Under the pieces are notes generated by a model. The model did not search any database. It was not told where the DNA came from and was given only the letters and a program-made list of their open reading frames with translations. Both the position numbers and the translations under genes were made by a program. From Squalus acanthias (taxonomy: Eukaryota), in the NCBI GenBank assembly GCA_030390025.1, contig JASTWF010000324.1, positions 248,001 through 312,000 of the forward strand: a DNA stretch of 64,000 nt, in the 5' to 3' direction. Shown here piece after piece: positions 30,988-52,832 of this stretch; within the stretch, counting starts at the first letter, position 1, and every line of letters begins with the position of its first letter.

Positions 30988-33900
30988 TAAAAGGAGCGGC
31001 AGCAACTCAACAGAGGCAATTTTTGAAAAAGTGACGTCAGAGTAAACAAAGTGACATCGGCACAAGGGAAGGAGCTGATTGGTGATTAGCTGGTGAGTGT
31101 ATTTTGTTAAGTTTTAAGTTTATTTCTGCTGCGTTAGTTCTCAGTCTATTAAATAGAGGCATGGCAGGGCAGCTCAGTCCTGTGGAATGCACATCCTGTG
31201 CCATGTGGGAAGTCCTGGACGCTTCCCGTGGTCTGGACGACCACATGTGCAGGAAGTGTCGCCAGCTACAGCAGCTCGAACTCCGTGTTTCAGAGCTTGA
31301 GCAGCAGCTGGAGTCACTGCGGTGCATCCGCGAGGCTGAGAGCCGTGGATAGCACGTTTCAGGAGGTGGTCACCCCGCAGCTAAGAGTGTGCAGGCAGAG
31401 AGGGAATGGGTGACCGTCAGACAGAGGAGGAGGACCAGGCAGGTAGTGCAGGAGTCCCTGAGTGCATCGCGTTCGCCAACCAGTATTCTGTTCTGAGTAC
31501 TGGTGAGGGCGATGGTTCCTCTGGGGAGTGCAGCCAGAGTCAGGTCCACGGCACCACAGGTGGCTCAACTGCACGGGGGGGGAGGAAAAAGACTGGAAGG
31601 GCAATAGTGATAGGGGATACGATAATTAGGGGAGCAGACAGGCGTTTCTGCGGCTGTAAACGTGACTCCAGGATGGTAGGTTGCCTCCCTGGTGCCAGGG
31701 TCAAGATGTCACTGAGTGGCTGCAGGACACTCTAAGGGGGGAGGGTGAACAGCCAGAGGTCGTTGTCCATATCGGTACCAACGACATAGGCAGGAAGAGG
31801 GATGAGGTCCTGCAGTGAGAGTTTAGGTAGCTAGGAGAGAGATTAAAAAGCAGGACCTCAAATGTAGTAATCTCCGGATTACTCCCGGTGCCACATGCTA
31901 GTGAGTACAGGAATGGCATGGCAGGACTGTCGTATGGGATGGCAGGACTGTCGGATGAGGAGAGATTGGGTCGACTAGGCCTGTATTCACTAGAGTTTAG
32001 AAGAATGAGAGGGGATCTCATTGAAATGTATAAAATTCTGACAGGGCTAGACAGACTGGATGCAGGGAGGATGTTTCCCCTGGCTGGGGGGTCTAGAACG
32101 AGGGGTCACAGTCTCAGGATACGGGGGTAGGCCATTTAGGACTGAGATGAGGAGAAATTTCTTCACTCAGAGGGTGGTGAACCTGTGGAATTCTCTACCA
32201 CAGAAGGCTGTGGAGGCCAAGTCACTGAATATATTTAAGAAGGAGATAGATAGATTTCTAGACGCAAAAGGCATCAAGGGGTATGGGGAGAGAGCGGGAA
32301 TATGGTATTGAGATAGAGGATCAGCCATGATCATATTGAATGGCGGAGCAGGCTCGAAGGGCTGAATGGCCGACTCCTGCTCCTATTTTTCTATGTTTCT
32401 ACAGGAATAGGAGAATAGAACAGATGAATGCGTGGCTGGAGAGATGGTGCAGGAGGGAGGGATTTAGATTCCTGAGGCATTGGGACCATTTCTGGGGAAG
32501 GTGGGAGCTGTATAAGCCGGACGGGTTACACCTCAACAGAGCCGGAACCAATATTCTCACGGGGAGGTTTGTTAGTGCTGTTGGGGAGGGTTTAAACTAA
32601 CTTGGCAGGGGGATGGGGACCAGCATATAGGAGTAGAAAAGAGGAATAAGGTGCATAAAAGAGTGAGTGTGTTGGATAGTACTGGAGAAGATAGTACTAG
32701 AGGCGATAGTAGTACCATATTAGATAGAAGTAGACAAAGAAAGACTCCAAAAAATTCAAAAATGAGTTTAGAATGCATGTACGTAAACACACAACGTGTG
32801 GTGAATAAGGTTGGTGAGCTACAAGCACAATTAGCCTTGTGGCAATATGATTTTGCGGCAATAATGAAAACGTGGCTTAAAAACGGTGAGGACTGGGCAC
32901 TTAATATTCAAGGGTACAAGGTGTTCAGAAAAGATAGGGAAGGAAAAAAGGGAGGTGGGGTGGCAGTGCTGATTAAGGAAGACATTATAGTGTTGGAAAG
33001 GGAGGATGTTCTTGAGGGGATCAGGACAGAATCCATTTGGTTAGAGTTGAGCAGCAAAAAGGGTATGATCACGCTATTGGGGATATTCTATAGGCCTCCA
33101 AATAGTGAGTGGGAGGTAGAGGAGCAAATCTGCTGGAAAATCACAGAGATATGCAAGAGCTATAGAGTGGTGATATTGGGGGACTTTAATTACCCAAATA
33201 TTGATTGGGATAATGCTAGGGTAAAGGGAAAGGAGGGGGAGGAATTTCTGAAATGTGTTCAGGAGAATTTCCTTGACCAATATGTTCTTGGCCCAACTAG
33301 GAAGGAGGCATTGCTGGATCTGGTGCTGGGGAATGAGGTGGGCCAGGTCGACCAAGTGTCTGTGGGAGAACACTTGGGTACGAGTGATCATCGTATCATA
33401 AGATTTAGATTAGCAATGGAGAGGAGCAAGGAACAATCTAGAGTGGAACTTCTACACTGGAATAGGGCTAACTTCAATGGGATGTGAAAGGATCTAGCCA
33501 GAGTAAAATGGAACCAAAGACTGACAGGAAAAACTGTAATGGAACAATGGGTGATCTTTAAGGAGGAGATGTTCCAAGTACAGGCTAGGTACATTCCAAC
33601 AAGAGGGAAGGGTAAGGGAACCAAAGCAAGGGCTCCTTGGATGACGAGAGGGATAGAGAAGATGATGAAACAAAAAAGAGGGTGTATAATGAATGTCAGG
33701 TGAATTCTTCAAGGGAGAACCAGACCAAATACAATATGTTGAGAAGGGAAGGGAAGATGAAAATAAGATTGGCAAAGAGAGAATATGAGAGTAGAATGGC
33801 GAATAAGGAACCCAAAAGTCTTCTACCGGCATGTAAACAGTAAGCGGGTAGTAAGAGATGGGGTGGAGACTATTAGGGTCAAAGGAGGTGATATATGCTT

Positions 33901-35286: not shown

Positions 35287-35550
35287 GTCATAGAGTCATA
35301 ATGGCAGAGGAGGAGGCCATTCGGCCCATCGAGTCCGTGCCGGCTCTCTGTAGAGCAATCCAGTCAGTCCCATTCCCCCGCTCTATCCCCGTAGCCCTGC
35401 AAGTTTATTTCCTTCAAGTGCCTATCCAGTTTCCCCTTGAAAACATTGAGTGTCTCCGCTTCCACCACTTCCGTCGGCAGCGAGTTCCAGGTCCTCACCA
35501 CTCGCTGCGTAAAAAAGTTTTTCCTCACATCCCCCCCTGTATCTCTTGCC
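35287..35550 (-). mobile_element. CR1 3' end (host of the provirus, left piece)
   Basis: ORF 35364-35564 reads [18 protein letters not shown]. It joins seamlessly with 48217 onward once the provirus and one TGCC copy are removed. Confidence 0.9.
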
Positions 35551-37192
35551 TGTAGAATTCGCAATTATCGCGATTTCATTTTTAATAAGGAGAAAACACA
35601 AGTTTCGTTCAAAACAGCTTTTATTTCAGCGGAATGCTGTCAGGTTTAAATTGGACACAAGCAGCCTGTAAAATGGCCGCCGCACCGCGTGACAGAACAT
35701 TCGAGACTTTTCGGCAGGCAGACAAGATGGCGTTCCAATAAACATTTTTGCAGGATCGATAACGATTCAGCACAGTGAAGACAATACACAGGACATTATG
35801 GGTTTACAGTATAAACATCGATACTGGGATCGGTCTCCCAGGTACAAAGGAAAGCCATCAAGGGCCCATCCAAAGGACATTAATATGTAAACTCCCAACG
35901 GCTCTACGATGAGAGAGCCGTTAGCAGGTAGTTATACAGGACACTTGGAAGCCCCAAACCCCTCCAGGGGGAACACCGACCGATTTAACAATGGGAGAAA
36001 TATTAACAGGTACTCAAACATTCAGGAGTAGCCCCGAAACCCATTAAGGACAGAGATCACCCATACAGGACATTTTTGGGCGCCAAACCTTAAACAAAAG
36101 AATGGACATTGTAGTTGGGCGGGAAACGGAAGAACTGTGCACTATAATTGCAGGCCCAAACCGTCCATTCGCTCTCTTGCCTCGTGTTCGTGACTCTTGC
36201 TCTTTTGCTCTTGACTCTTGCCGCTTGCTGCTGTTATCATCGTGGCTGCTCCTGTGTTTTATCCGGTCGATTCGTAACCTCGTGGCTGCTCCTGTGTAAA
36301 AGACTGTTGCAAAGACCTATGTTGGTAGCTGGCAGCGGAACCAAAGGCCCGAGATGAGATGAGATGAGATGAGATGAGAGGAGAAGAGAAGAAGACCTTA
36401 TCCATCGCCACGGTCAGTAAATCCCGACCGCGCCTGTAGGTCGATCAGCCAAGTCTTCTCGACAGGAAGTTTTCTTCTTTAACAAGACATATTGCATCGA
36501 CGATAACTGGACTGTGCAAACACATCGTATCAGCGATATTGACAACGGTGCTCCACCATACCCTGTATCCAACCAACAGAGGTCTTCACTACAGCGGACG
36601 GTCCAGCCGACTGACCGAGCAGCAGAAGCAGTAAACAAGTGGGACCAGGAGATCTCCTGACCAACACGTGGGTGCTGCGGTGAAAAAAAACATCCGATCA
36701 GCTATTCGGGATTTCTCCGAGTTATTACGAGTGGTGAGCATGAGTCTCGGGATCCTACGAAGCTAGTTTTAGGATAGTTATTGATAGGGGAGGGTTTAAA
36801 GTTTAAGGATATTTGTAATGTGTGCCCTATTTACGTTGTGCTGGTCGTTCCTCGTTTCCCTAAGAGTGATTATAACTGTTTGTAAGATTGTACTGTCATT
36901 AATCTGTGCATATGACATGTATTTCATAATTTTAAGTATCATGCAATAAAGATTTTCCATTTCGTACCGTTCAAACCAAGTCTACATGAGTTTTATCTCC
37001 ATTACTGCTCTCGCATCTAAGTCCAGTGTCTAGAACCGTAAGGGAGAGTGATTCGAACCACTCACAGGGGTGTCTAGTGTTCCCAGACTGGCTGGAGACC
37101 AGGCCTAGACCCGCACTGACATACAGGCTGCACAGAGCCGCGTGAACCTCACAGGCCACGAGACACGCAGGGTCAGGAGAGTATCCCTTACA
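35551..37192 (+). repeat. 5' LTR (1642 bp)
   Basis: Direct repeat of 46570-48212 with TG…CA termini. Internal (GAGAT)n at about 36351-36378 and AATAAA at 36945-36950. Confidence 0.97.
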
Positions 37193-37196
37193 GAAA

Positions 37197-39008
37197 ATGG
37201 CGACCGCGGCAGGACACTGGCAGCGAGAGGGTAGTGTGTTAGATTTTGGAATGACTGTACGAAATGTGATGCAGGAAAAGATAGCGGATTACGTATTTGG
37301 AAAGGTTAATCTAACGAAAAAGTGGATAAGCGAACTGTTAGCGGATAAGAGCCCACTAGAGGCAGCTGAAAGGTGGACGGATAGTAAGGAGCATAAAAAG
37401 GCAGTTGAGAAAGCAGTCTGGCTTATGTGCTACAAAAGGCAGGTTCAGATTTCAAACCAGACCAATACAGCGCTAACCGCTCGAATCAAGCAGTTAGAGG
37501 AGGAAATGGAGGAGAAGGTTTCTGGAGGGGAGGCGCTCATTAAGAGTTTAAATGAGTTACGCCAGGAAAGCCAGGAAGTCTCCAGCTACCTTAAAACAAG
37601 GGTAGAGTATCTCGAGTGCCAGATCACTGAAGCAAAATTAAACGAGAGTAGGATGAAGGAAAGATGTAACCGTCAAGCTGCCCAGATAAGAACTCAAGAA
37701 GAGAGCTTAATGGGGGTTAGGTCGGCGTATAAGTTGGCCCTTGAGGATAAGTTTCAGGGAGCCGACCATAGCGCCTGCGAAAAAGAGATAGAGAGCCTCA
37801 AAAAGGCCGTGAATAATGCGAACGGCATGGTGTGCCTTATTAATCCGTCGGCACGCCAGCCGCTAGTAAATGAGAGATTTAGAAATTCCCCACCAAGTAA
37901 AGCAGAAGAGGTAGTAGCCACTGCGCCCTCCGCGCCACCCAGCTATTCAGAAACCTGGGTTAGGGAGGAAGCAACGGAAGAAACAAAAGAGCCCGTTGAA
38001 AAGGAGGTAGAAAAGGGATCGTTGTATCCAGTAACGGGGATTAAAAGGGGCCCAAGCAGAAACGGTGGGGAAGAACCGGGGGATCTCCTCGGACAGCTGG
38101 TGTTGCCTCACAGTTCACATCAGCTGAGGGCCATGATAAACCACGTAAGGAAGCTGACCGAGATAGACGACCCTTCCGTACATTTTAGGGAAGTTGAGCA
38201 AGCCGCAGCCATCAACGGCTGCGATGATGGGGAGACAGCAAAAATGCTGCTGTTCTCATTAGATAGCTCGGTCCTTCAGTGTCTCTCAGGCGATAGCAAG
38301 AGGGGTAATAAAAGTTATGAGGAATTGAAAAATGAGGTCCTAGAAGTAGTGGGAGCGAACGACGGAGGTCCGTTTGCTAGAGTGGGACAGACAGTGCAGA
38401 TGGAGGGAGAACCCCCGAAGGTTTTTGCCGACAGGCTGTGGCCAGTATATGAGCGCAGCTGTCTAGGTGCGCCCGAGCGCGAAGATGTGGAAGGCGCCGC
38501 TTTAATTCATTGGCTTAGGTGCATAATAGCCAACAGTTTACCAGCCGTTAGAGAGCAGGCAAAAGCCTGGTTCGATCCCAATGACCTCAACCTTACGGAA
38601 GAGTCGGTCTTGAATCGACTCACGTTAGGTTACCGTAACATAAGGGGTATGGCAACACGTCCCTTTAAGGGAAGAGTACATGAGGTACGACCCGCAGCCC
38701 CGGCTCAAAGAGAGTGGCATCAGGAGGGTAATCGCGCCCCACAGGCAAGTAATGCCTGTTACGGGTGTGGGAAGACAGGGCACTGGCGCAAGCACTGCAG
38801 GAACCCTTGGAAGGATTCCAAGGATAAAAATCCCGCGGTCCGAGCCCAGGCGCCTGTCCCGGCTAAGGAAGCAAAGGCACCCACCTCTCCCGAAGACCTC
38901 GAGGCAGTGTTAGGAGTCATGCGCAAGATGGTTTTGAATGCGCGTGGACAGGTGGCGGTCGCAACCGGCCCCGTAGGTGCCGCAGGACCGTCTAATAGTG
39001 CCCCATGA
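37197..39008 (+). CDS. gag: Gag polyprotein (603 aa): N-terminal coiled coil, late domain, capsid-like region, one CCHC zinc knuckle
   Basis: CYGCGKTGHWRKHC at 38757-38798 and PSAPPSY at 37926-37946. The ORF sits directly after the LTR. Confidence 0.92.
   Translation: MATAAGHWQREGSVLDFGMTVRNVMQEKIADYVFGKVNLTKKWISELLADKSPLEAAERWTDSKEHKKAVEKAVWLMCYKRQVQISNQTNTALTARIKQLEEEMEEKVSGGEALIKSLNELRQESQEVSSYLKTRVEYLECQITEAKLNESRMKERCNRQAAQIRTQEESLMGVRSAYKLALEDKFQGADHSACEKEIESLKKAVNNANGMVCLINPSARQPLVNERFRNSPPSKAEEVVATAPSAPPSYSETWVREEATEETKEPVEKEVEKGSLYPVTGIKRGPSRNGGEEPGDLLGQLVLPHSSHQLRAMINHVRKLTEIDDPSVHFREVEQAAAINGCDDGETAKMLLFSLDSSVLQCLSGDSKRGNKSYEELKNEVLEVVGANDGGPFARVGQTVQMEGEPPKVFADRLWPVYERSCLGAPEREDVEGAALIHWLRCIIANSLPAVREQAKAWFDPNDLNLTEESVLNRLTLGYRNIRGMATRPFKGRVHEVRPAAPAQREWHQEGNRAPQASNACYGCGKTGHWRKHCRNPWKDSKDKNPAVRAQAPVPAKEAKAPTSPEDLEAVLGVMRKMVLNARGQVAVATGPVGAAGPSNSAP
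37198..37215 (+). promoter_or_regulatory. Primer binding site, tRNA-Ser-like (TGGCGACCGCGGCAGGAC)
   Basis: TGG starts 5 nt after the LTR end. The TGGCG…GGCAGGA pattern resembles the complement of vertebrate tRNA-Ser 3' ends (for example TGGCGTAGTCGGCAGGAT) but is an imperfect match. Confidence 0.65.
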
Positions 39009-42000
39009 CTAGAACCAGCACAGCCCGTCTACCTGTGTCCGCTCAGCTATGATGCGTGGAGGCGACCTGTGGTGGAGATGGAGGTAGAGAAACAAAAGGG
39101 CAGTTATTTGTTGGACACGGGAGCTTCTTGCACCATAATCCATACAGATGACCCTTTTGACTCGCCGCTATCTACCAAGGTCCCATTCACGCTAGCAGGG
39201 TTCACAGGGAAAGAACAGGCTGGCACGTTTTCCCTCCCGCTATCCATTCGTTTAGGGACACTTCGCCTTAAGTGGAAGTGTATACTGATGGCATGGCAAA
39301 AGGGGGGTGGAAGAGGTATTCTCGGGTCCGATCTGCTAGCGGGACACGGGATCCTCGTGGACCTCAGAAATCACTGTCTCTGGGGGGCTAAAGGGGAAAA
39401 AGGCGAGGTAATGGTAATTCAAGGGGAGGAAGAAACAGGGGTCCTGTGTACCGTACAGCCATCCGGAGGCTACGACCTCAGGCTTATGGTCGCAGATGTC
39501 CCAACGGACATGCAAACGTACGTGACAGATAATATGCACGCGTTTGCAACCCACAAGCACGATTGTGGGAGGGTGGTCGGGTTTGAGGTCAGCGTAGATG
39601 GGGACCCCATGACCCGACCCCAAAAGCAGTATAACTTCCCCAAAGAAGCAGAACCCGATATGGAGGCAGCAATGTCTTCCTTGGTGCAGCAGGGCGTGTT
39701 GAGGCCGATAGCCACACACGTGAACTCCCCATTATGGCCGGTTAGGAAGCCGGATAATTCGTGGAGAGCCACGGTGGACTACAGAGTCCTTAACAGTAAC
39801 ATCCCCGCCTGCGCGCCCACAGTAGCAGCAGTTGCTGACCTAATAGGGAGCATCCCAGCGTCCGCGACCACGTTCACGGTGCTGGATATCTCGAACGGTT
39901 TTTGGTCCATCCCGCTGCGGCGAGAGGACCAGTACAAGTTTGCCTTTACGTTTAAAGGGCAACAGTACACGTGGAACTGCTTGCCACAAGGTTTCCACAA
40001 TAGCCCCAGTATTTTTCACCAGTGTATGGCAGGAAGTTTAAAGGAGTTTAGTCAGCCCAATCAGATAGTACAGTATGTGGATGATTTGCTCCTATTTACG
40101 GACTCAAGGGAGGAGCACGGACCACTGCTGGACGAGTTATTGGAGCTGTTAGCGAGAAAGGGTTTTAAAGTAAACCCAAAGAAAGCACGTATCGGTCAGC
40201 AGGAAGTAAAATTCCTGGGACTGACCCTACGCGCTGGGGAAAGAGCCATAGACAAAGCAAGGAGGGAGTCGGTGCAAGAATTACCGATTCCCAACAACGT
40301 AAGGGGTGTGAGGTCCTTCTTGGGACTGACCGGTTACTGCAGGGATTTTATCGAGGATTATGCGGCCACAGCGGCACCGCTCCTCCGACTCCTCCATAAG
40401 GGAGTAGAGTGGCTTTGGGACGAGGGCTGCCAAGCAGCCTTCGAGAAGTTAAAAAGGGATCTGCAGACCGCGCCAGCCTTAGGGGCCATAGATGGGGGGA
40501 AGGAGTTTTTCCTGGAGGTAGCTGCCAGCGGAGACAGCTTAAGCGCCGTGCTGCTCCAAGAGCGTCACGGCAAGCTGAGGCCGGTTGTCTATTCATCCAG
40601 GGTATTAACGGATGTGGAGAGAAGTTTTTCCAATTGCGAAAGGCACCTTTTAGCCACGCATTGGGCTGTGAAAAGATCAGCGATCTTCACAGGGCTCTCT
40701 CCCATCACTCTCCTCACACATCACACACCAACTAAGATGCTTCTGGATGGGAGGATTAAAGACGGGACCGTAAGCAGCGCACGCATTGCGCGTTGGACCC
40801 TTCTTCTCTCCCAGTTGGACATCAGAGTAAAAGGTCTTTGCGAGCCCAGGCTTGCGGCCAATTTGGTATACCCCGGTACAGCCCACCGGTGTTCGGTGGA
40901 GGGGGTGTGGGACGTCAACATAGGTTTACGGGCCGGGATACATCCCACTGGGCGCGAGATTTATGTTGATGGGTCTAGCACAGTATCTGCTGGCGAGCGA
41001 CTCACAGGGTGTGGAGTTTATGACCCTGCGGCAGACCTTGCCCTGGCGATCAAGCTCCCTAGCACCATGAGCGCGCAGCAGGCTGAGCTGTCTGCCGTGG
41101 TGTACGTGGTAACCCACCCAGACATTTTCCCAACCCCATACACGATTTGCTCGGACAGTATGTTCACCTGCAATTCGTGTACGGAATACCTGGCCATTTG
41201 GTCCCGCCGTGGATACACCTCCGCGGACGGGCGACCTTTAACGGTAAAGCCCTTGCTGGAGAAGATCTTAGCGGCAGCAGTAGGGGAGGAAGGGGAGATT
41301 TTCATCCATAAGGTGAAAGCTCACTCCTCCACAGAGCCCCGTGGGGAGGGCAACCGGCAGGCGGATGCGCTAGCCAGGGAGGGTGCCCGCGACGGTACTT
41401 TCTGGAACCCCTATAGAACCGGACCCATAGCAGCGGTCCGAGGTGGGGACGGGAATACCGGGAACACCAGGGTAGCATTGCCCCTAGACCTTAAGACCGT
41501 CCAAGCCCAGGATCCCGCCCTAAAAGCAGTCCTAAAAACGATTGCTGAGGGGAGGCAGGTAGAAGGTCCGTACAGTACGGCAACCCTCTCAGTTAAGGAA
41601 GGCATGCTGTTCCGCGAGGAGCAGTGGGTTGTGCCGCAGCAGCACAGGAGGGAATTCCTCCAGTTGGCTCACGAGGGACCAGGGGCAGGGCACCCCGGGC
41701 CCGAGGTTACCTGGCAACGGGTAGAGCAAGCGGGATGGTGGCCAGGGCTCAGGGAACAAGTCCGCGAGTTCTGTGCAAACTGTCTTGTGTGCGCTGCAAA
41801 CAACCCAGACCCCCAGAAAAGGAAGGTGCCCATGGGACACGTAAGAAGGGTAGAGGGACCATGGCAGTCGATACAGATCGACTATATAGGACCCCTGCCC
41901 ACCACCCAGGGAGGTTATAAGTACTGCCTCGTCCTGGTGGATGTGTTTTCCAAGTGGGTGGAAGCCTTCCCTTGTCGAACAGCTACGGCACTGGGTACAG

Positions 42001-43511
42001 CAAAAATCTTGGTCCGGGAAGTGTTCTCGCGGTGGGGACTCCCCCGTTTCGTGGAGTCAGACCAAGGGAGTCATTTCACCGGCCAGGTGATGCAGAACAC
42101 CCTCATGCTTTTGGGCATTGAAGGGAAGTGGCACGTAGCACACAATCCCCAGTCATCCGGGATTGTTGAACGTATGAACCGGACCCTGAAGGAGAAATTG
42201 AGGAAAGAGACTAGGAACTCGCCCCAAAAATGGGCGGAAGTTCTGCCTTTAGTCCTCATGGGGGTCCGGGCCAGTCAGTCAAAAAGTACGGGGTACTCCC
42301 CGCACGAGGTAATGACCGGCAGGCTCATGCGAACCCCCACCCATGTGCTAGCCCCGGTGCTCACTGAGGGTCAGCTTCAAGAGATCAGCAGGGACAAGTT
42401 CGCCCAAACTCTCTTGGAGCGCCTGAAGCAAGTTTATGAGCAGGCGGCTGGGAACATGGGAAGGCAGCACCAGGGCAATCGCTTGTTGCTGGAACCCCGC
42501 AAAACGCGGGAGTGGGAAGTAGGAGACCAGGTCATGGTCAGAAACTACGCCAGAGTAGGGAGTCTGGAACCACTGTATATGGGACCCTACAACATTGTAG
42601 ACAAGGCGAGTCCCATGGTTTACGCCGTAAAAGTACCTCGGCGCACTAAGTGGTTCCACATAAACCAATGTAAACTGTACCAGCCGGGTGCGCAAGGGAA
42701 AACTACAGGGGTAAATCCCGCCAATGGGAAAACACAGCCCCAGGTAGGACCACAAGGCACACAGGCAGGCGTAGCAGCTTGCATCAGGGGAAGGGACATC
42801 CCGGACGATCATGCAGCGTTTTTCTGGAGTTGGGGGTTAGATGACGAGGACCCCAGGGTACCCTGGTCAGATGAGGATAGTGCAGATGAGCATAGTGATG
42901 ATGACGGGTGGTTTCAGAGGAACGGTCTGGAAGGATTGGGGCCGCTAGGTAGAGATCCATACGGGGTGGACACACAAGCTGCAGGTCCCGACAGCAGGAG
43001 GAAGGAGCTAGAGGAGGCCGGGCCAGCCGCTATGTGGTTCCCAGAGGTGTGGCCGCCCGCTCTGAACGTCCAGTCCTCAGGGGAGGCAGAGTTCGCGAGT
43101 GAAGGGCCGCCTGCTGGGCCGAGCAGGGCGGGGCCCCGAACTGCCAGCCCCGAGGTTAGGGAGGCGGAGTCAGCGGAGGCGGGGCTGGCGCCTGTGATGG
43201 AACCCCAGGTCATCCCGTTGAAGGTCTCGGGACCCGGTCCGTCCGTCACGGAGCCCCCGCCCATAGCAATTCCCCGTAGGTCAAGCAGAGTACCCCAGCC
43301 CAGGAAGACGTGGTCAGGTCCACAGGCTGCCCCAGGGCGTAAGTTTCAGGTTAAGATAACCCGGGTAGAGACAGGCCACATCGAAGCAGTAACAGGCTGC
43401 GGCAGATCAGAGGAAAGGGTCAGCGCAGCAACAGGCTGCGGCAGATCAGAGGGAAGGGTCAGTGCCCTCCCACCGTCGGGAAGAGCTCGCAGCAGCCTTC
43501 TCAGGATTTAA
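39009..43511 (+). CDS. pol: Pol (PR-RT-tether-RNase H-IN plus C-terminal extension), in frame with gag after a single TGA
   Basis: LLDTGAS (39114), LDISNGF, LPQGFHNSP, YVDD (40074), degenerate RNase H (about 40500-40730), RNase H YVDGS…AELSA…SDS…GNRQAD (about 40960-41380), IN HHCC and D-D-35-E (IDYIG, SDQGSHF, VERMN), GPY. The frame is open from 39009; the ORF track starts it at GTG 39069. Confidence 0.96.
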   Translation, partial: LEPAQPVYLCPLSYDAWRRPVVEMEVEKQKGSYLLDTGASCTIIHTDDPFDSPLSTKVPFTLAGFTGKEQAGTFSLPLSIRLGTLRLKWKCILMAWQKGGGRGILGSDLLAGHGILVDLRNHCLWGAKGEKGEVMVIQGEEETGVLCTVQPSGGYDLRLMVADVPTDMQTYVTDNMHAFATHKHDCGRVVGFEVSVDGDPMTRPQKQYNFPKEAEPDMEAAMSSLVQQGVLRPIATHVNSPLWPVRKPDNSWRATVDYRVLNSNIPACAPTVAAVADLIGSIPASATTFTVLDISNGFWSIPLRREDQYKFAFTFKGQQYTWNCLPQGFHNSPSIFHQCMAGSLKEFSQPNQIVQYVDDLLLFTDSREEHGPLLDELLELLARKGFKVNPKKARIGQQEVKFLGLTLRAGERAIDKARRESVQELPIPNNVRGVRSFLGLTGYCRDFIEDYAATAAPLLRLLHKGVEWLWDEGCQAAFEKLKRDLQTAPALGAIDGGKEFFLEVAASGDSLSAVLLQERHGKLRPVVYSSRVLTDVERSFSNCERHLLATHWAVKRSAIFTGLSPITLLTHHTPTKMLLDGRIKDGTVSSARIARWTLLLSQLDIRVKGLCEPRLAANLVYPGTAHRCSVEGVWDVNIGLRAGIHPTGREIYVDGSSTVSAGERLTGCGVYDPAADLALAIKLPSTMSAQQAELSAVVYVVTHPDIFPTPYTICSDSMFTCNSCTEYLAIWSRRGYTSADGRPLTVKPLLEKILAAAVGEEGEIFIHKVKAHSSTEPRGEGNRQADALAREGARDGTFWNPYRTGPIAAVRGGDGNTGNTRVALPLDLKTVQAQDPALKAVLKTIAEGRQVEGPYSTATLSVKEGMLFREEQWVVPQQHRREFLQLAHEGPGAGHPGPEVTWQRVEQAGWWPGLREQVREFCANCLVCAANNPDPQKRKVPMGHVRRVEGPWQSIQIDYIGPLPTTQGGYKYCLVLVDVFSKWVEAFPCRTATALGTAKILVREVFSRWGLPRFVESDQGSHFTGQVMQNTLMLLGIEGKWHVAHNPQSSGIVERMNRTLKEKLRKETRNSPQKWAEVLPLVLMGVRASQSKSTGYSPHEVMTGRLMRTPTHVLAPVLTEGQLQEISRDKFAQTLLERLKQVYEQAAGNMGRQHQGNRLLLEPRKTREWEVGDQVMVRNYARVGSLEPLYMGPYNIVDKASPMVYAVKVPRRTKWFHINQCKLYQPGAQGKTTGVNPANGKTQPQVGPQGTQAGVAACIRGRDIPDDHAAFFWSWGLDDEDPRVPWSDEDSADEHSDDDGWFQRNGLEGLGPLGRDPYGVDTQAAGPDSRRKELEEAGPAAMWFPEVWPPALNVQSSGEAEFASEGPPAGPSRAGPRTASPEVREAESAEAGLAPVMEPQVIPLKVSGPGPSVTEPPPIAIPRRSSRVPQPRKTWSGPQAAPGRKFQVKITRVETGHIEAVTGCGRSEERVSAATGCGRSEGRVSALPPSGRARSSLLRI

Positions 43512-43794: not shown

Positions 43795-46143
43795 ATGGAA
43801 CGACTTCTGGTTTTGCTCGTGGCAATCGGATGTGGATTGGCCTATCGGGGCCTCACCAAGGATGTCGTGGTGTTTGGATGTTCCGGGGACACGGCCCCCA
43901 TCGCGGTGGATGGGACCGGAAGACGGAAGGAAGGGACCAGCACCTACTTCCACAAGGGAAGGTGGCCAGGATGGCTGGGAACGAACTCAACGGAGTATTC
44001 CAGCACATCGGGGTTCGCCTACAAAGAGACTTCTTTAATGTGCCCCAAAGTACGGATCATCGCACCCAGGATCAGCGTCACCGTCGGCAAACGGATTTGT
44101 TTGACCTGCAGTGGGAATGTCCCATTGAGCCGATGGTGGTGGCTGCGAAAGCTGAGCAAAACTATGAGGAACTCTTCGGTTGAGTGGGAGCGACTGGGTA
44201 ATAATACCCATCGGACAATTACGGGGACAGATGGACAAGTGAAAGTCTGTTGGGACAAATGGTGGGAACCAGATGAGGGGATTTATGTTTGTATGTGGGG
44301 GTCAAAGTACGTTTGCCCCAAAGGCATCTCCATATTCTTTATTAACCAGTGGCAGGATAACGGACAGGGGATGAGGTGGGATGCGAGCACCAGGGGGTGC
44401 GGAGCCCCATACTCTCCGATCCCAGTAAATGCCACTGAGCTCATTACGCGCCCACGCAAAGCCCCGCCCACGATTCCGGTAGTTCTAACTGAGGAAGAAG
44501 GGTGCCCTAAAACTAGTAAGGGACCCGGGAACGGTTTGGTACTGGTCCCCACAGACCAGATACTATTTCAGGGGGTACATTACGCGGTGGCCTCGGTGAT
44601 TTTAAATCTCACTGAGGTACGGTTACCAGAGTGGTGCCCCAAAAAGACGGAACAGTTGTACCAGATCCTGTTGACCAAGATGTTCAGGCAATTTTACGAG
44701 TTTGATTTTGCAGAAATCGATAAGACAAGTTTATACACCGCACCGCAGGAAGTTTTGGGCCAAGTAGGGAGGCAAAGAAGGGGTTTGGTGAACGATGCGT
44801 TCACTGCTTTTAACACAGGGACATCTGTGGTCAACGCTCTAGACAGTGTGGAGCTGCAGACCCAGATTAATGGTTTAAAAACACAGTTAAAGGATATTCT
44901 TACAGATGAGAATAAAGTGGTAGGGTCGGGTCTGCACGAGGACCAAGCCATGACACTACACTTAAAAGAGATTATAGCAGAGCTGGAGAAACATGCGCGT
45001 ACGGTAAATGCCCTGATTAGGGAAGATCGGAATGCATCCGATCAAGCTGCGCAGAACGAGGTGTGCGTGCTTTACGGGGCGTGGTTACTGGGCGAGGGCC
45101 GCAGTAATTTGGAGGATTTAAAACAAGGTTTGGTCCCGTCCTGGATAAGTAACAAACACCTGCGGGCGCTCCACCCTTTTCAGAATGCATTAAGTCCGTG
45201 CCAGCTCAGGCTAGCTTCAGAAGCTTACCCAGTCCCCGTGGACTGCGGACGTTCAAACCATACTATTATGGGAATAGTATTACGCATGCCGGTTTTGGGC
45301 AACACAGCAAAGCCCGCCCCGGTGTATCGGGTAGAGAACATCGGTGTCATTCAGGGGGGAGCCCACATTCGTTATGCAGCGGTTCCACCTTACGTCATCC
45401 GCTGGGAGCAAACGATGACAGGTACAGATCTCTCTGGTTGTCGTGGCAGGGGAGCACACATAATACTGTGCCCCCAGCACTTGAATGCCTTTTTAACACC
45501 ACAGTGCGGGTTCAGAACGGCTGGCGCCAAGTCCATGAATTGCACCATGGAGGCAATGGCACAAGATCATGTGCCTCCGCAGGTAGCATACATCGGGGGT
45601 GGAACATATTGTGTTACCACTGCAGCGCAACACTACCAGCATGGAAACCGTAGCCGGTGTCCGGTGAGTGACAGCAGTTTCTGTTTTAAACCCAGGGCTG
45701 AAGTTCAAGTAGCACAACAGCGAATTATCCCAATCCCTGAACCATCCACTGTTCATCTCACAGTAAAAGAGAATTTTACCGACTTGCAGCGATTTGTCGC
45801 ACATTTTGGGTACCTCATTCCCCCTCTCCCCGAGCATTTAACCAAACTTCTGAAAGCCGTCGCGGTGTCACAAAAGCATTTCTATACATTAGAACAGAAA
45901 ACCGTCGAGATAGGTACAGACATTTTGGACATAGTGGTTCCACCGTGGTGGAATCTGTTCACGAATATTGAAGTGCCCTCATGGGTCAGAATAGCCTCCC
46001 ACATTTTAGTCGTCTGTCAAGTGTTTATTGTAGTATACCTTTTGTTCATACATTGTAAAAGAGACAAGCGCCTCACCAAGCATGAGAACACGGGAGAGTG
46101 GCGAGAACGTTACGTGCGCGTGCACGATGAGAGCGCAGTGTAA
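43795..46143 (+). CDS. env: Envelope glycoprotein (782 aa), class I fusion protein
   Basis: Signal peptide MERLLVLLVAIGCGLA, several NxS/T sequons, furin site RQRR (44770-44781), following peptide GLVNDAFTAFNTGTSVVNAL, heptad repeat, Cys-rich region, TM ILVVCQVFIVVYLLFI and a short tail. Confidence 0.9.
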   Translation: MERLLVLLVAIGCGLAYRGLTKDVVVFGCSGDTAPIAVDGTGRRKEGTSTYFHKGRWPGWLGTNSTEYSSTSGFAYKETSLMCPKVRIIAPRISVTVGKRICLTCSGNVPLSRWWWLRKLSKTMRNSSVEWERLGNNTHRTITGTDGQVKVCWDKWWEPDEGIYVCMWGSKYVCPKGISIFFINQWQDNGQGMRWDASTRGCGAPYSPIPVNATELITRPRKAPPTIPVVLTEEEGCPKTSKGPGNGLVLVPTDQILFQGVHYAVASVILNLTEVRLPEWCPKKTEQLYQILLTKMFRQFYEFDFAEIDKTSLYTAPQEVLGQVGRQRRGLVNDAFTAFNTGTSVVNALDSVELQTQINGLKTQLKDILTDENKVVGSGLHEDQAMTLHLKEIIAELEKHARTVNALIREDRNASDQAAQNEVCVLYGAWLLGEGRSNLEDLKQGLVPSWISNKHLRALHPFQNALSPCQLRLASEAYPVPVDCGRSNHTIMGIVLRMPVLGNTAKPAPVYRVENIGVIQGGAHIRYAAVPPYVIRWEQTMTGTDLSGCRGRGAHIILCPQHLNAFLTPQCGFRTAGAKSMNCTMEAMAQDHVPPQVAYIGGGTYCVTTAAQHYQHGNRSRCPVSDSSFCFKPRAEVQVAQQRIIPIPEPSTVHLTVKENFTDLQRFVAHFGYLIPPLPEHLTKLLKAVAVSQKHFYTLEQKTVEIGTDILDIVVPPWWNLFTNIEVPSWVRIASHILVVCQVFIVVYLLFIHCKRDKRLTKHENTGEWRERYVRVHDESAV

Positions 46144-46560
46144 TGGGAAAACGGCGTCACTCCCGCTCGCCACGTGCGCCGCGGAAGTTTGTACTCAGTG
46201 TAAATACGTTGGAAACTCGACATGTTTAAGAGTCGGGATTTGTTTATTTTGGTGATGGTGTTGATTGTTTGGTTTTTTGGGTTTTGTTTTTCCTTCCCTT
46301 GAATAAAAGATAAATATACAGGTGATGCGTGAGGTATCGGCCTGGTTACGCCGGGAAGGAAAACAAGTGGTGTAAGTTTAAGGGCAAATGATGCCTATGG
46401 TGATATAAAGTGTGATTTTCTTGGGAAATAAGGACGACACAGAGACCCTAGTGAAGTTAAAATTTTTATGGGATTAATTTACTGGATTCGGAGTGAAATC
46501 GAGATAAGATTGCTCACCACTGAGATTTTTGATACGATAAGCGGAGTTATTCGCATCAAC

Positions 46561-46568
46561 AGGAGGGA
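46561..46568 (+). promoter_or_regulatory. Short polypurine tract (AGGAGGGA)
   Basis: Purine run ending 1 nt before the 3' LTR. Confidence 0.7.
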
Positions 46569-46569
46569 C

Positions 46570-48212
46570 TGTAGAATTCGCAATTATCGCGATTTCATTT
46601 TTAATAAGGAGAAAACACAAGTTTCGTTCAAAACAGCTTTTATTTCAGCGGAATGCTGTCAGGTTTAAATTGGACACAAGCAGCCTGTAAAATGGCCGCC
46701 GCACCGCGTGACAGAACATTCGAGACTTTTCGGCAGGCAGACAAGATGGCGTTCCAATAAACATTTTTGCAGGATCGATAACGATTCAGCACAGTGAAGA
46801 CAATACACAGGACATTATGGGTTTACAGTATAAACATCGATACTGGGATCGGTCTCCCAGGTACAAAGGAAAGCCATCAAGGGCCCATCCAAAGGACATT
46901 AATATGTAAACTCCCAACGGCTCTACGATGAGAGAGCCGTTAGCAGGTAGTTATACAGGACACTTGGAAGCCCCAAACCCCTCCAGGGGGAACACCGACC
47001 GATTTAACAATGGGAGAAATATTAACAGGTACTCAAACATTCAGGAGTAGCCCCGAAACCCATTAAGGACAGAGATCACCCATACAGGACATTTTTGGGC
47101 GCCAAACCTTAAACAAAAGAATGGACATTGTAGTTGGGCGGGAAACGGAAGAACTGTGCACTATAATTGCAGGCCCAAACCGTCCATTCGCTCTCTTGCC
47201 TCGTGTTCGTGACTCTTGCTCTTTTGCTCTTGACTCTTGCCGCTTGCTGCTGTTATCATCGTGGCTGCTCCTGTGTTTTATCCGGTCGATTCGTAACCTC
47301 GTGGCTGCTCCTGTGTAAAAGACTGTTGCAAAGACCTATGTTGGTAGCTGGCAGCGGAACCAAAGGCCCGAGATGAGATGAGATGAGATGAGATGAGAGG
47401 AGAAGAGAAGAAGACCTTATCCATCGCCACGGTCAGTAAATCCCGACCGCGCCTGTAGGTCGATCAGCCAAGTCTTCTCGACAGGAAGTTTTCTTCTTTA
47501 ACAAGACATATTGCATCGACGATAACTGGACTGTGCAAACACATCGTATCAGCGATATTGACAACGGTGCTCCACCATACCCTGTATCCAACCAACAGAG
47601 GTCTTCACTACAGCGGACGGTCCAGCCGACTGACCGAGCAGCAGAAGCAGTAAACAAGTGGGACCAGGAGATCTCCTGACCAACACGTGGGTGCTGCGGT
47701 GAAAAAAAAACATCCGATCAGCTATTCGGGATTTCTCCGAGTTATTACGAGTGGTGAGCATGAGTCTCGGGATCCTACGAAGCTAGTTTTAGGATAGTTA
47801 TTGATAGGGGAGGGTTTAAAGTTTAAGGATATTTGTAATGTGTGCCCTATTTACGTTGTGCTGGTCGTTCCTCGTTTCCCTAAGAGTGATTATAACTGTT
47901 TGTAAGATTGTACTGTCATTAATCTGTGCATATGACATGTATTTCATAATTTTAAGTATCATGCAATAAAGATTTTCCATTTCGTACCGTTCAAACCAAG
48001 TCTACATGAGTTTTATCTCCATTACTGCTCTCGCATCTAAGTCCAGTGTCTAGAACCGTAAGGGAGAGTGATTCGAACCACTCACAGGGGTGTCTAGTGT
48101 TCCCAGACTGGCTGGAGACCAGGCCTAGACCCGCACTGACATACAGGCTGCACAGAGCCGCGTGAACCTCACAGGCCACGAGACACGCAGGGTCAGGAGA
48201 GTATCCCTTACA
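46570..48212 (+). repeat. 3' LTR (1643 bp)
   Basis: Copy of the 5' LTR. The only difference I could see is A9 (47702-47710) versus A8 (36683-36690). Confidence 0.97.
47965..47970 (+). terminator. Candidate polyadenylation signal AATAAA in the 3' LTR
   Basis: AATAAA about 240 nt before the LTR end. Another AATAAA occurs near the LTR 5' end, so the usage is inferred. Confidence 0.5.
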
Positions 48213-51182
48213 TGCCCAAAACCTTAAATCTGTGTCCCCTAGTCCTTGTACCATCAAGTAGTGGGAACAGCCTTTCCTCGTCTAGCCTATCCAAACCCGT
48301 CATAATCTTGTACACCTCTATCAAATCACCCCTCAACCTCCTTTGCTCTAATGAAATCAAATCCAGCTTCTCCAACCAGTCCTTGTAGCTAAGATCCCCA
48401 TCCCCGGAACCATTCTGGTAAATCTCCTCTGCACCCTCTCAAGGGCCTTCACATCCTTCCTAAAGTGTGGTGACCAGAACTGGACGCAATATTCCAGTTG
48501 TGGCCTAACCAGCGCTTTATAAAGATTCAGCATAACTTCTCTACTTTTGTACTCAATACCTCTATTTATGAAGCCCAAGATCCCATATGCTTTGTTAAAC
48601 GCTCTCTCATTGGCCCAAAAATTCGGCCGTTCCCGGGTGAGTACGCATTGTGTACTCACCCGTATTAATTCCCGAAGTGCCGGTTTCCTGCATGCACTGC
48701 GCATGCACGGGAAACCCGAACTTCCGGTATGGTGAAGGGGGCGGTTCCTAGGTGAACCGTGTGCTTGGTAGAGGCTGCGCGCACGCAGCACACTTAGATA
48801 TTTTTTCAGGTTTCAACGCGAGGGTAAGTTTTGAAGATTCTACGCTAATAAAAAGGAGGCGTAAGACCACTTTTGAACAAGGTAAGTAGTAAATTAAATT
48901 TAATTTTAAATTTTTTTCAACAGGTTTATCTTTTTTAGATACTTTAAAGAAAGGTAAGTTTATTTTTATAACTTTTAAAAATTATTTTAATTTTTTCAAA
49001 AATTTAAATTTTTGTTTAAAGTGGTTAATTTATTTAACTATAGTTATTTTATAAATGTGATGTTTTTTTAAAATTTATTTGAAGTTTAGCTGTTCTTTTG
49101 GGGCCGATTTCAATTCACAGATTTGACAGGTCTCATGTCAAATCTATGAATGAAAGATGGTCTGCTGCCATTGGCTCTCCATGGCCCACGTGATCCCAGG
49201 GTTCGCATCGCACTAACTGCGCCCCTGGGACACGCAAGCACTGCGCGCCGGCACTAGGGAGAGGCCCAGGACCCGAAGTTCCTGTGGGCCCGAAACACAA
49301 CGGCAGGCGCGGTGGGTAAGAGCGCGCGCGATCCTTACCCCCGCGGCAAGCCGGCCACCCGAATTTCTAGGCCAATATGTCCCGCCACCTTCAGGAACCT
49401 ATGCACATTAACTCCCAGGTCCCTCTGTCCCTGCACACTCTTTAAAACTGTACCATTAAGTGTATGTTGCCTCTCCCTGTTCCTTCTGCCAAATGCATCA
49501 CCTCACACTTCTCTGTATTAAATTCCATCTGCCACTTGTCTGCCATTCTGCTAGCCTTTCTATGTCCTGTTGCAGTCAATTGATATCATCATCAGTGTTT
49601 GCCACACCCCCAAGTTTGGAGTCATTGGCAAATTTAGAAATTCTACTCTGTGTTCCAATATCCAGGTCATTTATATATATCAAAAAAGCAGTGGCCCCAG
49701 CACTGACCCTTGGGGCACACCACTGTCTACCATCCTCCAGTCTGAAAAACAGCCATTTACCACAACTCGCTGTTCTCTGTCCTTAAGCCAATTCCTTATG
49801 TAAGCTGCCACTGACCCACCTATTCCATGAGCCTCAATTTTGTTAACCAGCCTTCTATGTGGTACTTTGTCAAACGCCTTTCTAAAATCCATGCAGACAA
49901 CATCCATTGCATTCCCTTCATCAATCCTCCTGTTACTTCATCAAAAAATTCAATTAGGTTCGTCAAACATGATCTGCCTTTTACAAATCCGTGTTGACTC
50001 TCCTTAATTAGTTTAAACCTCTCCAAATGCCCGTTAATTTTTTCCTTGATTATTGTTTCTAAAACTTTACCCAAGACTGATGTTAAACTGACCGGCCTGT
50101 AGTTACTAGGATTGTCCTTACACCCTTTCTTGAACAATGGTGTCACATTTGCCACTTTTCAATCCTCAGGCACTTCCTACGCATCTAGGGAAGATTGAAA
50201 AATTATGGCAAGCCCTTCCGCTATCTCCTCCCGCAATTCTCTTAGCAACCTGGGATGCAAGCCATCTGGACCAGGCGACTTATCCACTCTAAGCATACCC
50301 AACCTTTCGAGTAAAACCTGTCTATCAATTTGCACCACTTCCATTGCTTCTACCTTTTCCACATCTACCGATATTTTGTCAGCATCCACCTCCTTAGTAA
50401 ACACAGATACAAAGTACTCATTGCGTATTCTAGCCTTGCCCTGCGCCTCTAAGCATATAACACCCCGCCTCTTACTACCCGCTTACTGTTTACATGCTGG
50501 CAGAAGATTTTTGGGTTCCCTTTTATGTTAACCGCCATTCTACTCTCATATTCCTCTTTGCCAATCTGATTTTCATCTTCACTTCCCCTCTCAACTTATT
50601 TTATTTGGTCTGGTTCTTCCTTGAAGAATTCACCTGACATGCATCATACGCCCTCTTTTTTTGTTTCATCATCTTCTTACTCTCCCTCGTCATCCAAGGA
50701 GCCCTAGCTTTGGTTCCCTTACCCTTCCCTCTTGTTGGAATGTACCTAGCCTGTACTTGCAACATCTCCTCCTTAAAGATCACCCATTGTTCCGTTACAG
50801 TTTTTCCTGTCAGTCTTTGGTTCCATTTTACCCTGGCCAGATCCTTTCGCATCCCATTGAAGTTAGCCCTATTCCAGTTTAGAAGTTCCACTCTAGATTG
50901 TTCCTTGCTCCTCTCCATTGCTAATCTAAATCTTATGATACGATGATCACTCGTACCCAAGTGTTCTCCCACAGACACTTGGTCGACCTGGCCCACCTCA
51001 TTCCCCAGCACCAGATCCAGCAATGCCTCTTTCCTAGTTGGGCCAAGAACATACTGGTCAAGGAAATTCTCCTGAACACATTTCAGAAATTCCTCCCCCT
51101 CCTTTCCCTTTACCCTAGCATTATCCCAGTCGATATTTGGGTAATTAAAGTCCCCCAATATCACCAATCTATAGCTCTTGCA
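48213..51182 (-). mobile_element. CR1 ORF2 (EN C-terminal part + RT), degenerate; right piece of the provirus host, itself interrupted by a MITE
   Basis: Minus-strand ORFs carry GDFNYP/LDLVL/SDH (50601-51203), KSPGPDG, NYRPVSLTS, DFRKAFDKVPH, GVPQGSVLGP and RPQLEYCVQFWSP. Confidence 0.92.
48612..49373. mobile_element. Non-autonomous DNA transposon (MITE), possibly PIF/Harbinger-type
   Basis: Imperfect TIRs GGCCCAAAAATTCGG / CCGAATTTCTAGGCC, flanks ATT and AAT, AT-rich core. The CR1 reading frame is continuous across it (…VAGHIERAFNKA…). Confidence 0.75.
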
Positions 51183-52530
51183 AGGCCAGCATTTATTGCC
51201 CATCCCTAATTGCCCTTGAGAAGGTGGTGGTGAGCCGCCTTCTTGAAACGCTGCAGTCCGTTTGGTGAAGGTACTCCCACAGTGCTGCTAGGGAGGGAGT
51301 TCCAGGATTTTGACACAGTGACAATGAAGGAACGGTGATATACTTCTAAGTCAGCATGGTGTGTGACTTGGAGGGGAACTTGGAGGTGGTGGTGTTCCCA
51401 TGTGCCTGCTGCCCTTGTCCTTCTAGAGGTTGCGGGTTTGGGAGGTGCTGCTGAAGAAGCCTTGGCGAGTTGCTGCAGTGCATCTTGTAGAGGGTACACA
51501 CTGCAGCCACGGTACGCCGGTGGTGGAGGGAGTGAATGTTTAAAGTGGTGGATGGGGTGTCAATCAAACGGGCTGCTTTGTCTTGGATGGTGTCGAGCAT
51601 CTTGAGTGTTGTTGCAGCTGCACTCATCCAGGCAAGTGGAGAGTATTCCATCACACTCCTGACTTGTGCCTTGTAGATGGTGGAAAGGCTTTGGGGAGTC
51701 AGGAGGTAAGACACTCGCTGCAGAATACCCAGCCTGTGACCTGCTCTTGTTGCCACAGTATTTATGTGGCTGGTCCAGTTAAGTTTCTGGTCAATGGTGA
51801 CCCCCAGGATGTTGATGGTGGGGGATTCGGCGATGGTAATGCCGTTGAATGTCATGGGGAGGTGGTTAGATTCTCACTTGTTGGAGATAGTCATTGCCTG
51901 GCACTTCTGTGGTGCGAATGTTACCTGCCACTTATCAGCCCAAGCCTGAACGTCGTCCAGGTCTTGTTGCATGCGGGCATGGACTGCTTCATTATCTGAG
52001 GAGTTGCGAATGGCACTGAACACTGTGCAGTCATCAGCAAACATCCCCATTTCTGACCTTATGTTGGAGGGAAGGTCATTGATGAAACAGCTAAAGATGG
52101 TTGGGCCTAGGACACTGCCCTGAGAAACTCCTGCAGCGAAGTCCCGGGGTTGAGATGATTGACTTTCAATCACCACAACCATCTTCCTTTGTGCTAGGTA
52201 TGACTCCAGCCAGTGGAGCGTTTTCCCCCTGATTCCCATTGACTTCAGTTTTATTAGGGCTCCTTGATGCCACACTCGGTCAAATGCTGCCTTGATGTCA
52301 AGGGCAGTCACTCTCATCTCATGTCTGGAATTCAGCTTCTTTGTCCATGTTTGGACCAAGGCTGTAATGAGGTCGGGAGCCGAGTGGTCTTGGCGGAACC
52401 CAAACTGGGCATCAGTGAGCAGGTTATTGGTGAGTAAGTGCCGCTTGATAGCACTGTCGACAACACCTTCCATCACTTTGCTGATGATTGAGATTAGACT
52501 GATGGGGCGGTAATTGGCCAGATTGGATAT
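51183..52530 (-). mobile_element. 5'-truncated LINE of a different family (RT and 3' end)
   Basis: NYRPISLIS, ALDIKAAFDRVWH, QGSVLGP and FADD in ORF 51874-52635, continuing in 51346-51855. Confidence 0.88.
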
Positions 52531-52534
52531 GTCC

Positions 52535-52832
52535 TGCTCTTCCACTCTTCTTCCCCCCACCCTGTGCAGCTGAGCCACCTGTGGTGCCGTGGCCTTGGCT
52601 CTGGTTGCTCTCCCCAGAGGAGGCATCAACGTCACCAGTTTCCAGAACTGTGAACCGGTTAGCGAGCGAGATGCACTCTGGAGATTCCTGCCTGATCCTC
52701 CTTCTCTGTCTGGTGGTCACCCATTCCCTCTCTGCCTGCACATTCTGAGGCTGCGGGGTGACCACTTCTAGAAACATGCTTTCAAAGTATATCGCAGCCT
52801 CGCGGATGCACTGTAGTGACTCCAGCTGCCGC
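52535..52832 (-). mobile_element. CR1 ORF1 fragment
   Basis: FLEVVTP…EREWVT…HGTTGGSAAQGG is homologous to 31310-31600 on the + strand. Confidence 0.85.

Follow-up and report, generated by a model that had tools for sequence, protein, structure and literature searches.

Introduction

The hexanucleotide UGA-CUA is the motif of type II stop-codon readthrough in the classification of Beier and Grimm, and a structure 3' of this motif is described as only conditionally required in the pertinent section of a 2026 review (PMC13517186). The same source gives a readthrough of at least about 1.3% for UGACUAG in human genes, which fits the view of an earlier note on the DNA described here that this context is leaky in vertebrate genes. 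That note had also ascribed UGA-CUA and UGA-CGG to alphaviruses, in agreement with the nsP3/nsP4 stops of Sindbis virus (SINV, UGA-CUA) and Venezuelan equine encephalitis virus (VEEV, UGA-CGG). The alphavirus stem is reported to follow a spacer of 8-12 nt, to close a loop of 101-154 nt, and to raise readthrough up to 10-fold (Firth et al. 2011, PMC3159437). Here we describe a UGA-CUAG stop between gag and pol in a provirus of Squalus acanthias, located in a window of 64,000 nucleotides (assembly GCA_030390025.1, contig JASTWF010000324.1, positions 248,001 to 312,000 of the forward strand; all coordinates below are those of the window), where programmed type II readthrough, specified by UGA-CUA and a 3' stem, very probably yields a Gag-Pol of 2104 codons, stop position counted.

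Readthrough at gag-pol, including versions with UGA, is already known, and it is the combination of UGA-CUAG with a long stem that we have not found described for retroviruses. The gammaretrovirus murine leukemia virus (MLV) uses a stop codon for the same purpose and at the same position relative to the protease as the Squalus element, but its signal is composed of UAG-G, a G-rich spacer and a compact pseudoknot (type III), and its reverse transcriptase (RT) belongs to a distant lineage. The earlier note had assigned UAG readthrough or frameshifting to retroviruses; this is correct as regards UAG in gamma- and epsilonretroviruses, but the implied strangeness of UGA is not, as section 4.1.2 of the review lists UGA-AGA in SSSV, UGA-CGA in ZFERV and UGA-AGU in RMERV, next to UAG-GGC in snakehead retrovirus (SnRV) (PMC13517186), and the gag-pol stop of XtERV-S is reported to be TGA (PMC8278194). 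Like the Squalus element, SSSV, ZFERV, RMERV and XtERV-S separate gag from pro-pol by one in-frame UGA, presumed to be read through; the contexts of the first three are not UGA-CUA, and the RT lineages of all four differ from that of the element. The review calls the cis-elements outside the gammaretroviruses unclear and lists no UGA-CUA retrovirus (PMC13517186), and no retrovirus described with UGA-CUA was found in the open-access literature searched.

The gag-pol junction

The junction consists of the following features.

37197..39008, + strand: gag open reading frame (ORF), 603 amino acids, ending in TGA, with one CCHC knuckle near 38754-38801
39006..39012, + strand: UGA-CUAG readthrough context (type II), from the sequence and the type II definition
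39009..43511, + strand: pol frame, 1500 amino acids, with protease, RT (YVDD), tether RNase H, active RNase H, integrase and a long low-complexity tail (Pfam)

The gag frame extends from stop to stop over nucleotides 37146-39008, with its ATG at 37197, and the pol frame is the same frame, the distances of 39006, 39009 and 39069 from 37197 all being divisible by three. Nucleotides 39003-39014 read CCA-TGA-CTA-GAA. Frame arithmetic and ORFs thus bear out the earlier statement that gag ends in CCA-TGA-CTA-G with the same frame open into the protease. The UGA is the sole in-frame stop, gag and pol being otherwise unbroken, and each of the other two frames contains several stops across the junction. 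The sequence TGACTAG occurs once in both strands of the window, at 39006-39012; as a chance baseline, CTAG is found in frame at 12 of the 2104 gag-pol codon starts (0.6%). The hexanucleotide of the type II class (UGA-CUA or UGA-CGG) is therefore present as UGA-CUA-G at 39006. Type II readthrough also calls for a coding region that continues in frame past the stop and has no alternative means of being expressed; the 1500-codon pol frame is such a region, although splicing keeps a small probability as an alternative. The first methionine of the pol frame is codon 24, just 12 residues before the protease Asp. A search for slippery heptamers in 38700-39200 found only one, at 39152 inside the protease, and none within 140 nt of the stop.

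The provirus that carries this junction is complete and very young. A single 1-nt indel is all that distinguishes the long terminal repeats (LTRs), located at 35551-37192 and 46570-48212, and an undamaged TGCC target duplication flanks the provirus; with one difference in the 1642 nt of an LTR, about 3e-4 changes per site have accumulated after insertion. The distance between the stop and the protease Asp, 36 codons, can be compared with 27 in gammaretroviruses, 32 in SnRV and 41 in the control locus L080. Distant retroviral loci (69 and 12 in two viral and metagenome searches), mostly gammaretrovirus-like, served as controls. Two loci from metagenomes that are not of the gamma type also have in-frame junction stops, TAG-GGA in L029:1079 and TGA-GGA in L066:1065, the latter being a further UGA junction in a context other than CUA.

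In the proposed mechanism most ribosomes would halt at the gag UGA and release the 603-amino acid Gag, and a few percent would insert an amino acid at the UGA by means of a near-cognate tRNA and continue into Pol. The outcome would be much Gag and little Gag-Pol, and hence a low enzyme-to-capsid ratio. Two elements would make up the signal: the leaky UGA-CUAG itself and, 3' of it, a long stem-loop.

Predicted RNA structure 3' of the stop codon

The predicted stem-loop can be divided into three segments.

39012..39044, + strand: 5' arm of the predicted extended stem (folding; the matches of relatives end at 39038-39040)
39045..39197, + strand: inner stem-loop, a predicted unbranched continuation that contains the protease DTG codons (39114) (folding)
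39198..39230, + strand: 3' arm of the predicted extended stem, which also encodes the putative protease flap (folding; one contig resumes matching at 39198)

Nucleotides 39006-39240 are predicted to fold as one unbranched rod of -97.1 kcal/mol (z -5.33), and none of 200 shuffled sequences was as stable. The long-range pairs between the arms had probabilities of 0.87-1.0 in all five sequence contexts, and the window of the rod gave the best z among 39 non-overlapping windows (20 shuffles each). Firm helices are predicted to begin about 10 nt 3' of the stop, and the first short helix is probably too near the stop to survive on the ribosome. The prediction thus includes the extended 3' stem-loop past a spacer of 8-12 nt that is a frequent, although not obligatory, trait of type II signals. 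Another candidate for the stimulator, a hairpin formed locally by 39015-39074 (z -1.8 to -2.6), was rejected, since it did not rank among the best 10 of 126 windows and its probability fell to 0 once the 3' arm was included. Folding of about 150 nt downstream of the stop had been suggested in the earlier note as a check; 152 nt gave only a modest hairpin (z -2.6), and it was a longer context that revealed the long stem. As a consequence, of the span 39006..39068 first assigned to the signal the location of the stop stands and the 3' limit does not, the predicted signal extending to about 39231. A separate strong fold (z about -6.0, 20 shuffles) is predicted within gag at 38536-38770, just ahead of the zinc knuckle.

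The element resembles the alphaviruses in its UGA-CUA context, in the expression of the polymerase as a readthrough fusion, and in a 3' stem, predicted in its case, that lies past a short spacer and closes a loop of 100-155 nt. Alphavirus relatives moreover show flux between stop and sense codons, as do the relatives of the element. The differences are that the site is here a retroviral gag-pol junction and that the stem, as predicted, is an unbranched one of greater length (about 220 nt). SnRV resembles the element in its in-frame stop, which precedes the protease Asp by 32 codons, in its primer-binding site (PBS), and in the size of its Gag, the sequence of which is weakly similar, but its stop is UAG-GGC (type III), the Pol identity is just 32%, and its junction has no comparable rod (z -1.68).

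Related proteins and related DNA

A search with the Gag sequence returned two related clusters (52% and 38% identity), and when the protein ends were compared six of their seven members were found to terminate in the alignment column in which the Gag of the element ends; the seventh ends early, in unrelated sequence. The closest named Gag is a skate protein with 52% identity. No fused long Gag-Pol homolog was found in a search that its own tool described as weak.

At the DNA level, 20 of the 24 runs listed (11 studies, 8 coded organisms) contain 0.66-0.79 of the words sampled from 37200-43500, which points to a near-identical family spread over several hosts, either by recent descent or by cross-species spread. 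There were no RNA runs among the listed holders, and no DNA of close relatives was found in the viral and metagenome collections. Contigs of four of the 20 holder runs were compared over 38200-40200 at 80% likeness, and all four cover the bin of the junction. None of the best-supported 40 of 389 differences is located within 38934-39256, the longest gap (the next longest is 250 nt). Synonymous changes account for 27 of these 40 (gag 9 of 16, pol 18 of 24), against about 30% expected, and none of the 40 creates a stop.

Some matches end abruptly near the junction. Among the loose ends shown (24 of 213), five are at 39004/39005 or 39038/39040, in three runs, a pattern that suggests diverged families matching only a 35-nt block that begins at the stop. 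One of seven joints connects 39038 with 39198, where both arms have their inner ends, and the letters that follow the shared block in those relatives are able, as judged by eye, to pair with the 5' arm. From this thin evidence it appears that the relatives keep DNA likeness in just the two arms.

Lineage of the element and comparison with lokiretroviruses

In a tree of the RT plus connection region (31 rows, 391 columns, rows hand-chosen from the matches) the element groups with unnamed, frog, coelacanth and turtle elements (support 79) and lies outside the lokiretroviruses (100), the mammalian foamy viruses (four RTs, 100) and the gamma and epsilon types (95-100). The backbone is unresolved (support 27-46), and a 50-row FastTree agrees on the placement relative to the lokiretroviruses and the gamma and epsilon types. 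Three identities were considered and rejected: that of a lokiretrovirus, because P0168, P0170 and P0194, the first of which was matched to a Loki RT row in the PMC7947760 supplement, form a clade (100) that excludes the element; that of a gamma- or epsilonretrovirus, because of the RT clade and of UGA-C instead of UAG-G; and that of a foamy virus, because of the RT clade, the presence of a CCHC knuckle and a pol in the gag frame. The best-scoring known virus for the RT region is SnRV (P0163/L082, identified through an RT row in a supplement), with 258 bits compared to 230 for gamma types and 194 for foamy viruses, a score to which no supported grouping corresponds in the tree. Endogenous retroviruses (ERVs) of class III related to SnRV (clade Huo; CmiERV lineage I) are reported from elephant shark (PMC4422223), as are foamy-like ERVs, for which a pairing of shark and frog is described (PMC5512871); this pairing (CmiFLERV, XtrFLERV) resembles the tree neighbours of the element. 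In cartilaginous fish clade III ERVs are reported to dominate (PMC11089739).

The lokiretroviruses share with the element the gag-pol-env organization and the dual RNase H. In addition, six of their consensus sequences in the supplement (Wang and Han 2020, PMC7947760), examined by eye, have TGA-CTA in frame at the junction; the next letter is G in Ofa, Cne, Pyo and Sau (TGA-CTA-G) and A in Dcl and Lro (TGA-CTA-A). The 22 of 24 sequence headers available comprise eight labelled as fused gag-pol and 14 with a separate pol, six of the latter showing the motif. The Aro, Ape and Lch sequences start at or near pol, Lch opening with TGACTAG out of the pol frame; the passage of Lca available has no motif, and Bsp, Bpe, Tfu and Rca are those among the 14 that carry no assignment. 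The main text of PMC7947760 does not mention readthrough, nor, by term search, does PMC9040795. Lokiretroviruses are reported in PMC7947760 as not found in three cartilaginous-fish genomes. In the fused Loki-Pfl sequence an Arg codon precedes CTA-A, which echoes the flux between stop and sense codons of the alphaviruses.

Alternative explanations

Several observations weigh against a programmed signal with a stimulating stem, and they are best considered together with the explanations that they favour. The Gag-Pol frame could formerly have been open, the stop being a recent nonsense mutation of this copy. Eight of the 22 lokiretrovirus headers available are labelled as fused gag-pol, and the Arg codon of Loki-Pfl is found at the same spacing as the TGA-CTA of Ofa, Cne, Pyo and Sau; P0005, a gene model from coelacanth with 45% identity, likewise crosses the junction, with a Gln in register with the stop as counted by eye. 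Since only about 3e-4 changes per site have occurred after insertion, a fresh hit at exactly this codon is however unlikely, and six of seven related Gags stop at the same column, no difference was present at 39006-39012 among the best-supported 40 of 389 rows from four organisms, and the weak search for a fused long homolog was negative. We regard this explanation as very unlikely. Alternatively, a spliced mRNA lacking the stop could serve for the translation of pol, as in foamy viruses, the conserved block being a branch point and acceptor region. The TGAC resembles the branch-point consensus, the AG at 39045 has 15 pyrimidines in the 20 nt upstream compared to 14 for the best AG before env, splicing at 39045 would leave 22 residues ahead of the protease Asp, and foamy RTs are the top solved structures for the RT core (185 vs 165 bits). 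Against this, three other AGs (39011, 39017 and 39022) are located between the TGAC and 39045, the matches of relatives stop at 39038-39040, short of the 39045 AG, and none of the seven listed joints, all from contigs, is a GT..AG skip of the stop. A pol in the gag frame without its own AUG and a Gag with a zinc knuckle are both unlike foamy viruses, and the RT tree places the element outside the mammalian foamy clade. Spliced expression of pol is in our estimation improbable. Frameshifting near the stop or insertion of selenocysteine at the UGA is scarcely credible: frameshift sites, too, typically have a strong structure on their 3' side and selenocysteine is encoded by UGA, but gag and pol are in one frame with several stops in both others, the only slippery heptamer lies within the protease, and no selenocysteine insertion sequence or other Rfam match was found.

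A different question is the role of the stem once readthrough is accepted. Readthrough may be real and depend on UGA-CUAG by itself, the stem serving in packaging, RNA stability or escape from nonsense-mediated decay, or not forming, a version that we consider possible although somewhat doubtful. UGACUA contexts need a structure only conditionally, according to the section cited above (PMC13517186), other windows of the provirus fold well too (z -6.0 and -4.6), no compensatory changes could be counted for the stem, and the SnRV junction does without such a rod. The register of the rod window was picked after the fold had been seen, this window ranks 16 of 305 by raw energy, the arms by themselves are an unexceptional duplex (rank 182-574 of 2000), and the joint from 39038 to 39198 comes from a single contig of depth 3.45 with a 26-nt side that was flagged as weak. 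On the other hand, the stem begins at the distance reported for alphavirus stimulators (spacer of 8-12 nt, loop of 101-154 nt), and both arms appear to coincide with the places where the relatives keep their DNA likeness. Returning to programmed readthrough with a 3' stem, the earlier proposal of a Gag-Pol of about 2100 amino acids is supported by the geometry of the frames, the young provirus, the conserved Gag end, the distance to the protease, the context and the predicted stem, from which we infer the readthrough itself. The junction can be considered a genuine readthrough cassette that is probably functional and that extends further than the earlier note had seen.

Other features of the provirus

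The remaining features of the provirus are as follows.

35547..35550, + strand: target-site duplication TGCC, left copy
35551..37192, + strand: 5' LTR, 1642 nt, TG...CA, one 1-nt indel vs the 3' LTR
37198..37215, + strand: PBS-like 18-mer starting TGG, 5 nt past the LTR and overlapping the gag ATG, 13 of 18 identical to the matching SnRV site
43795..46143, + strand: env-like ORF, 782 amino acids, with signal peptide, RQRR site and hydrophobic C-terminal stretch, read from the sequence
46558..46569, + strand: short purine-rich tract ahead of the 3' LTR
46570..48212, + strand: 3' LTR, 1643 nt
48213..48216, + strand: target-site duplication TGCC, right copy

Since the PBS-like site shares its first bases with the gag ATG (37193-37215), Gag would start inside this site. 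All three Gag clusters have an M-A-T start, consistent with a translated PBS, and in P0126 an upstream Met lengthens the frame. The 18-mer at 37198-37215 presumably matches an arginine tRNA with the anticodon UCG, which we take to be a near-cognate reader of UGA; this may be a coincidence. A search of the window for tRNA genes to compare with the PBS found none. The zinc knuckle of Gag was detected by Pfam zf-CCHC with E=0.0088, below the curated cut-off. The dual RNase H of pol is represented by PF17919/PF17917 followed by PF00075 (Pfam), an arrangement common to all retroviruses. After the integrase, the pol tail (42700-43511) has about 270 residues, acidic and then Pro/Arg-rich, with a short terminal repeat; P0003-P0005 and P0007, which are homologs from frog and coelacanth, have no such tail.

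The env-like ORF had no match in Pfam or in PDB and no usable fold support (model pLDDT 33; one Atlas cluster at 0.84). Pfam specifically gave no match to PF00523, the paramyxovirus F-like Env that is a trait of lokiretroviruses, and the fold model, at pLDDT 33, was unusable for this comparison. The N-terminal part (43795-44460) has a Cys/Trp pattern that looks immunoglobulin-like (Ig-like) by eye, for which Pfam gave no match; the frog homolog P0002 ends with an env-like stretch that has a weak Ig match (Ig_3 E=0.012). The putative transmembrane subunit (44700-45990), with the RQRR site, a hydrophobic peptide, a helix and a Cys-rich region, bears a by-eye resemblance to the F-like Env of lokiretroviruses, despite the non-Loki RT. 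The provirus is inserted in a repeat element, and its flanks (1-16000, 52700-64000, 32576-33900 and 48213-51200) contain a satellite array with a 30-nt unit, a purine-rich array with a 10-nt unit and fragments resembling long interspersed nuclear elements.

Implications

The element offers a compact and testable cassette, a stop context and a predicted stem of two arms, in a very young provirus whose family is found in at least 8 coded organisms. It is conceivable, although we think it rather unlikely, that UGA-CUA(G) with an alphavirus-like stem is an overlooked and widespread Gag-Pol strategy of deep-branching aquatic retroviruses, and maybe the ancestral recoding signal, because the signal is present both in an element of the shark/frog group and in the lokiretroviruses, which are sister to all other retroviruses. 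If this were true, UAG with a pseudoknot, frameshifting and spliced pol would all have arisen from a UGA-CUA(G) signal. Convergence on a context that is generally leaky in vertebrates is a more likely cause of the shared hexamer than ancestry. As the hexamer is found in six lokiretrovirus consensus sequences, in-frame stops of this kind should not be scored as inactivating mutations in the annotation of ERVs, and whether retroviral recoding signals are ancestral or convergent in origin becomes a question that a survey of genomes can answer.

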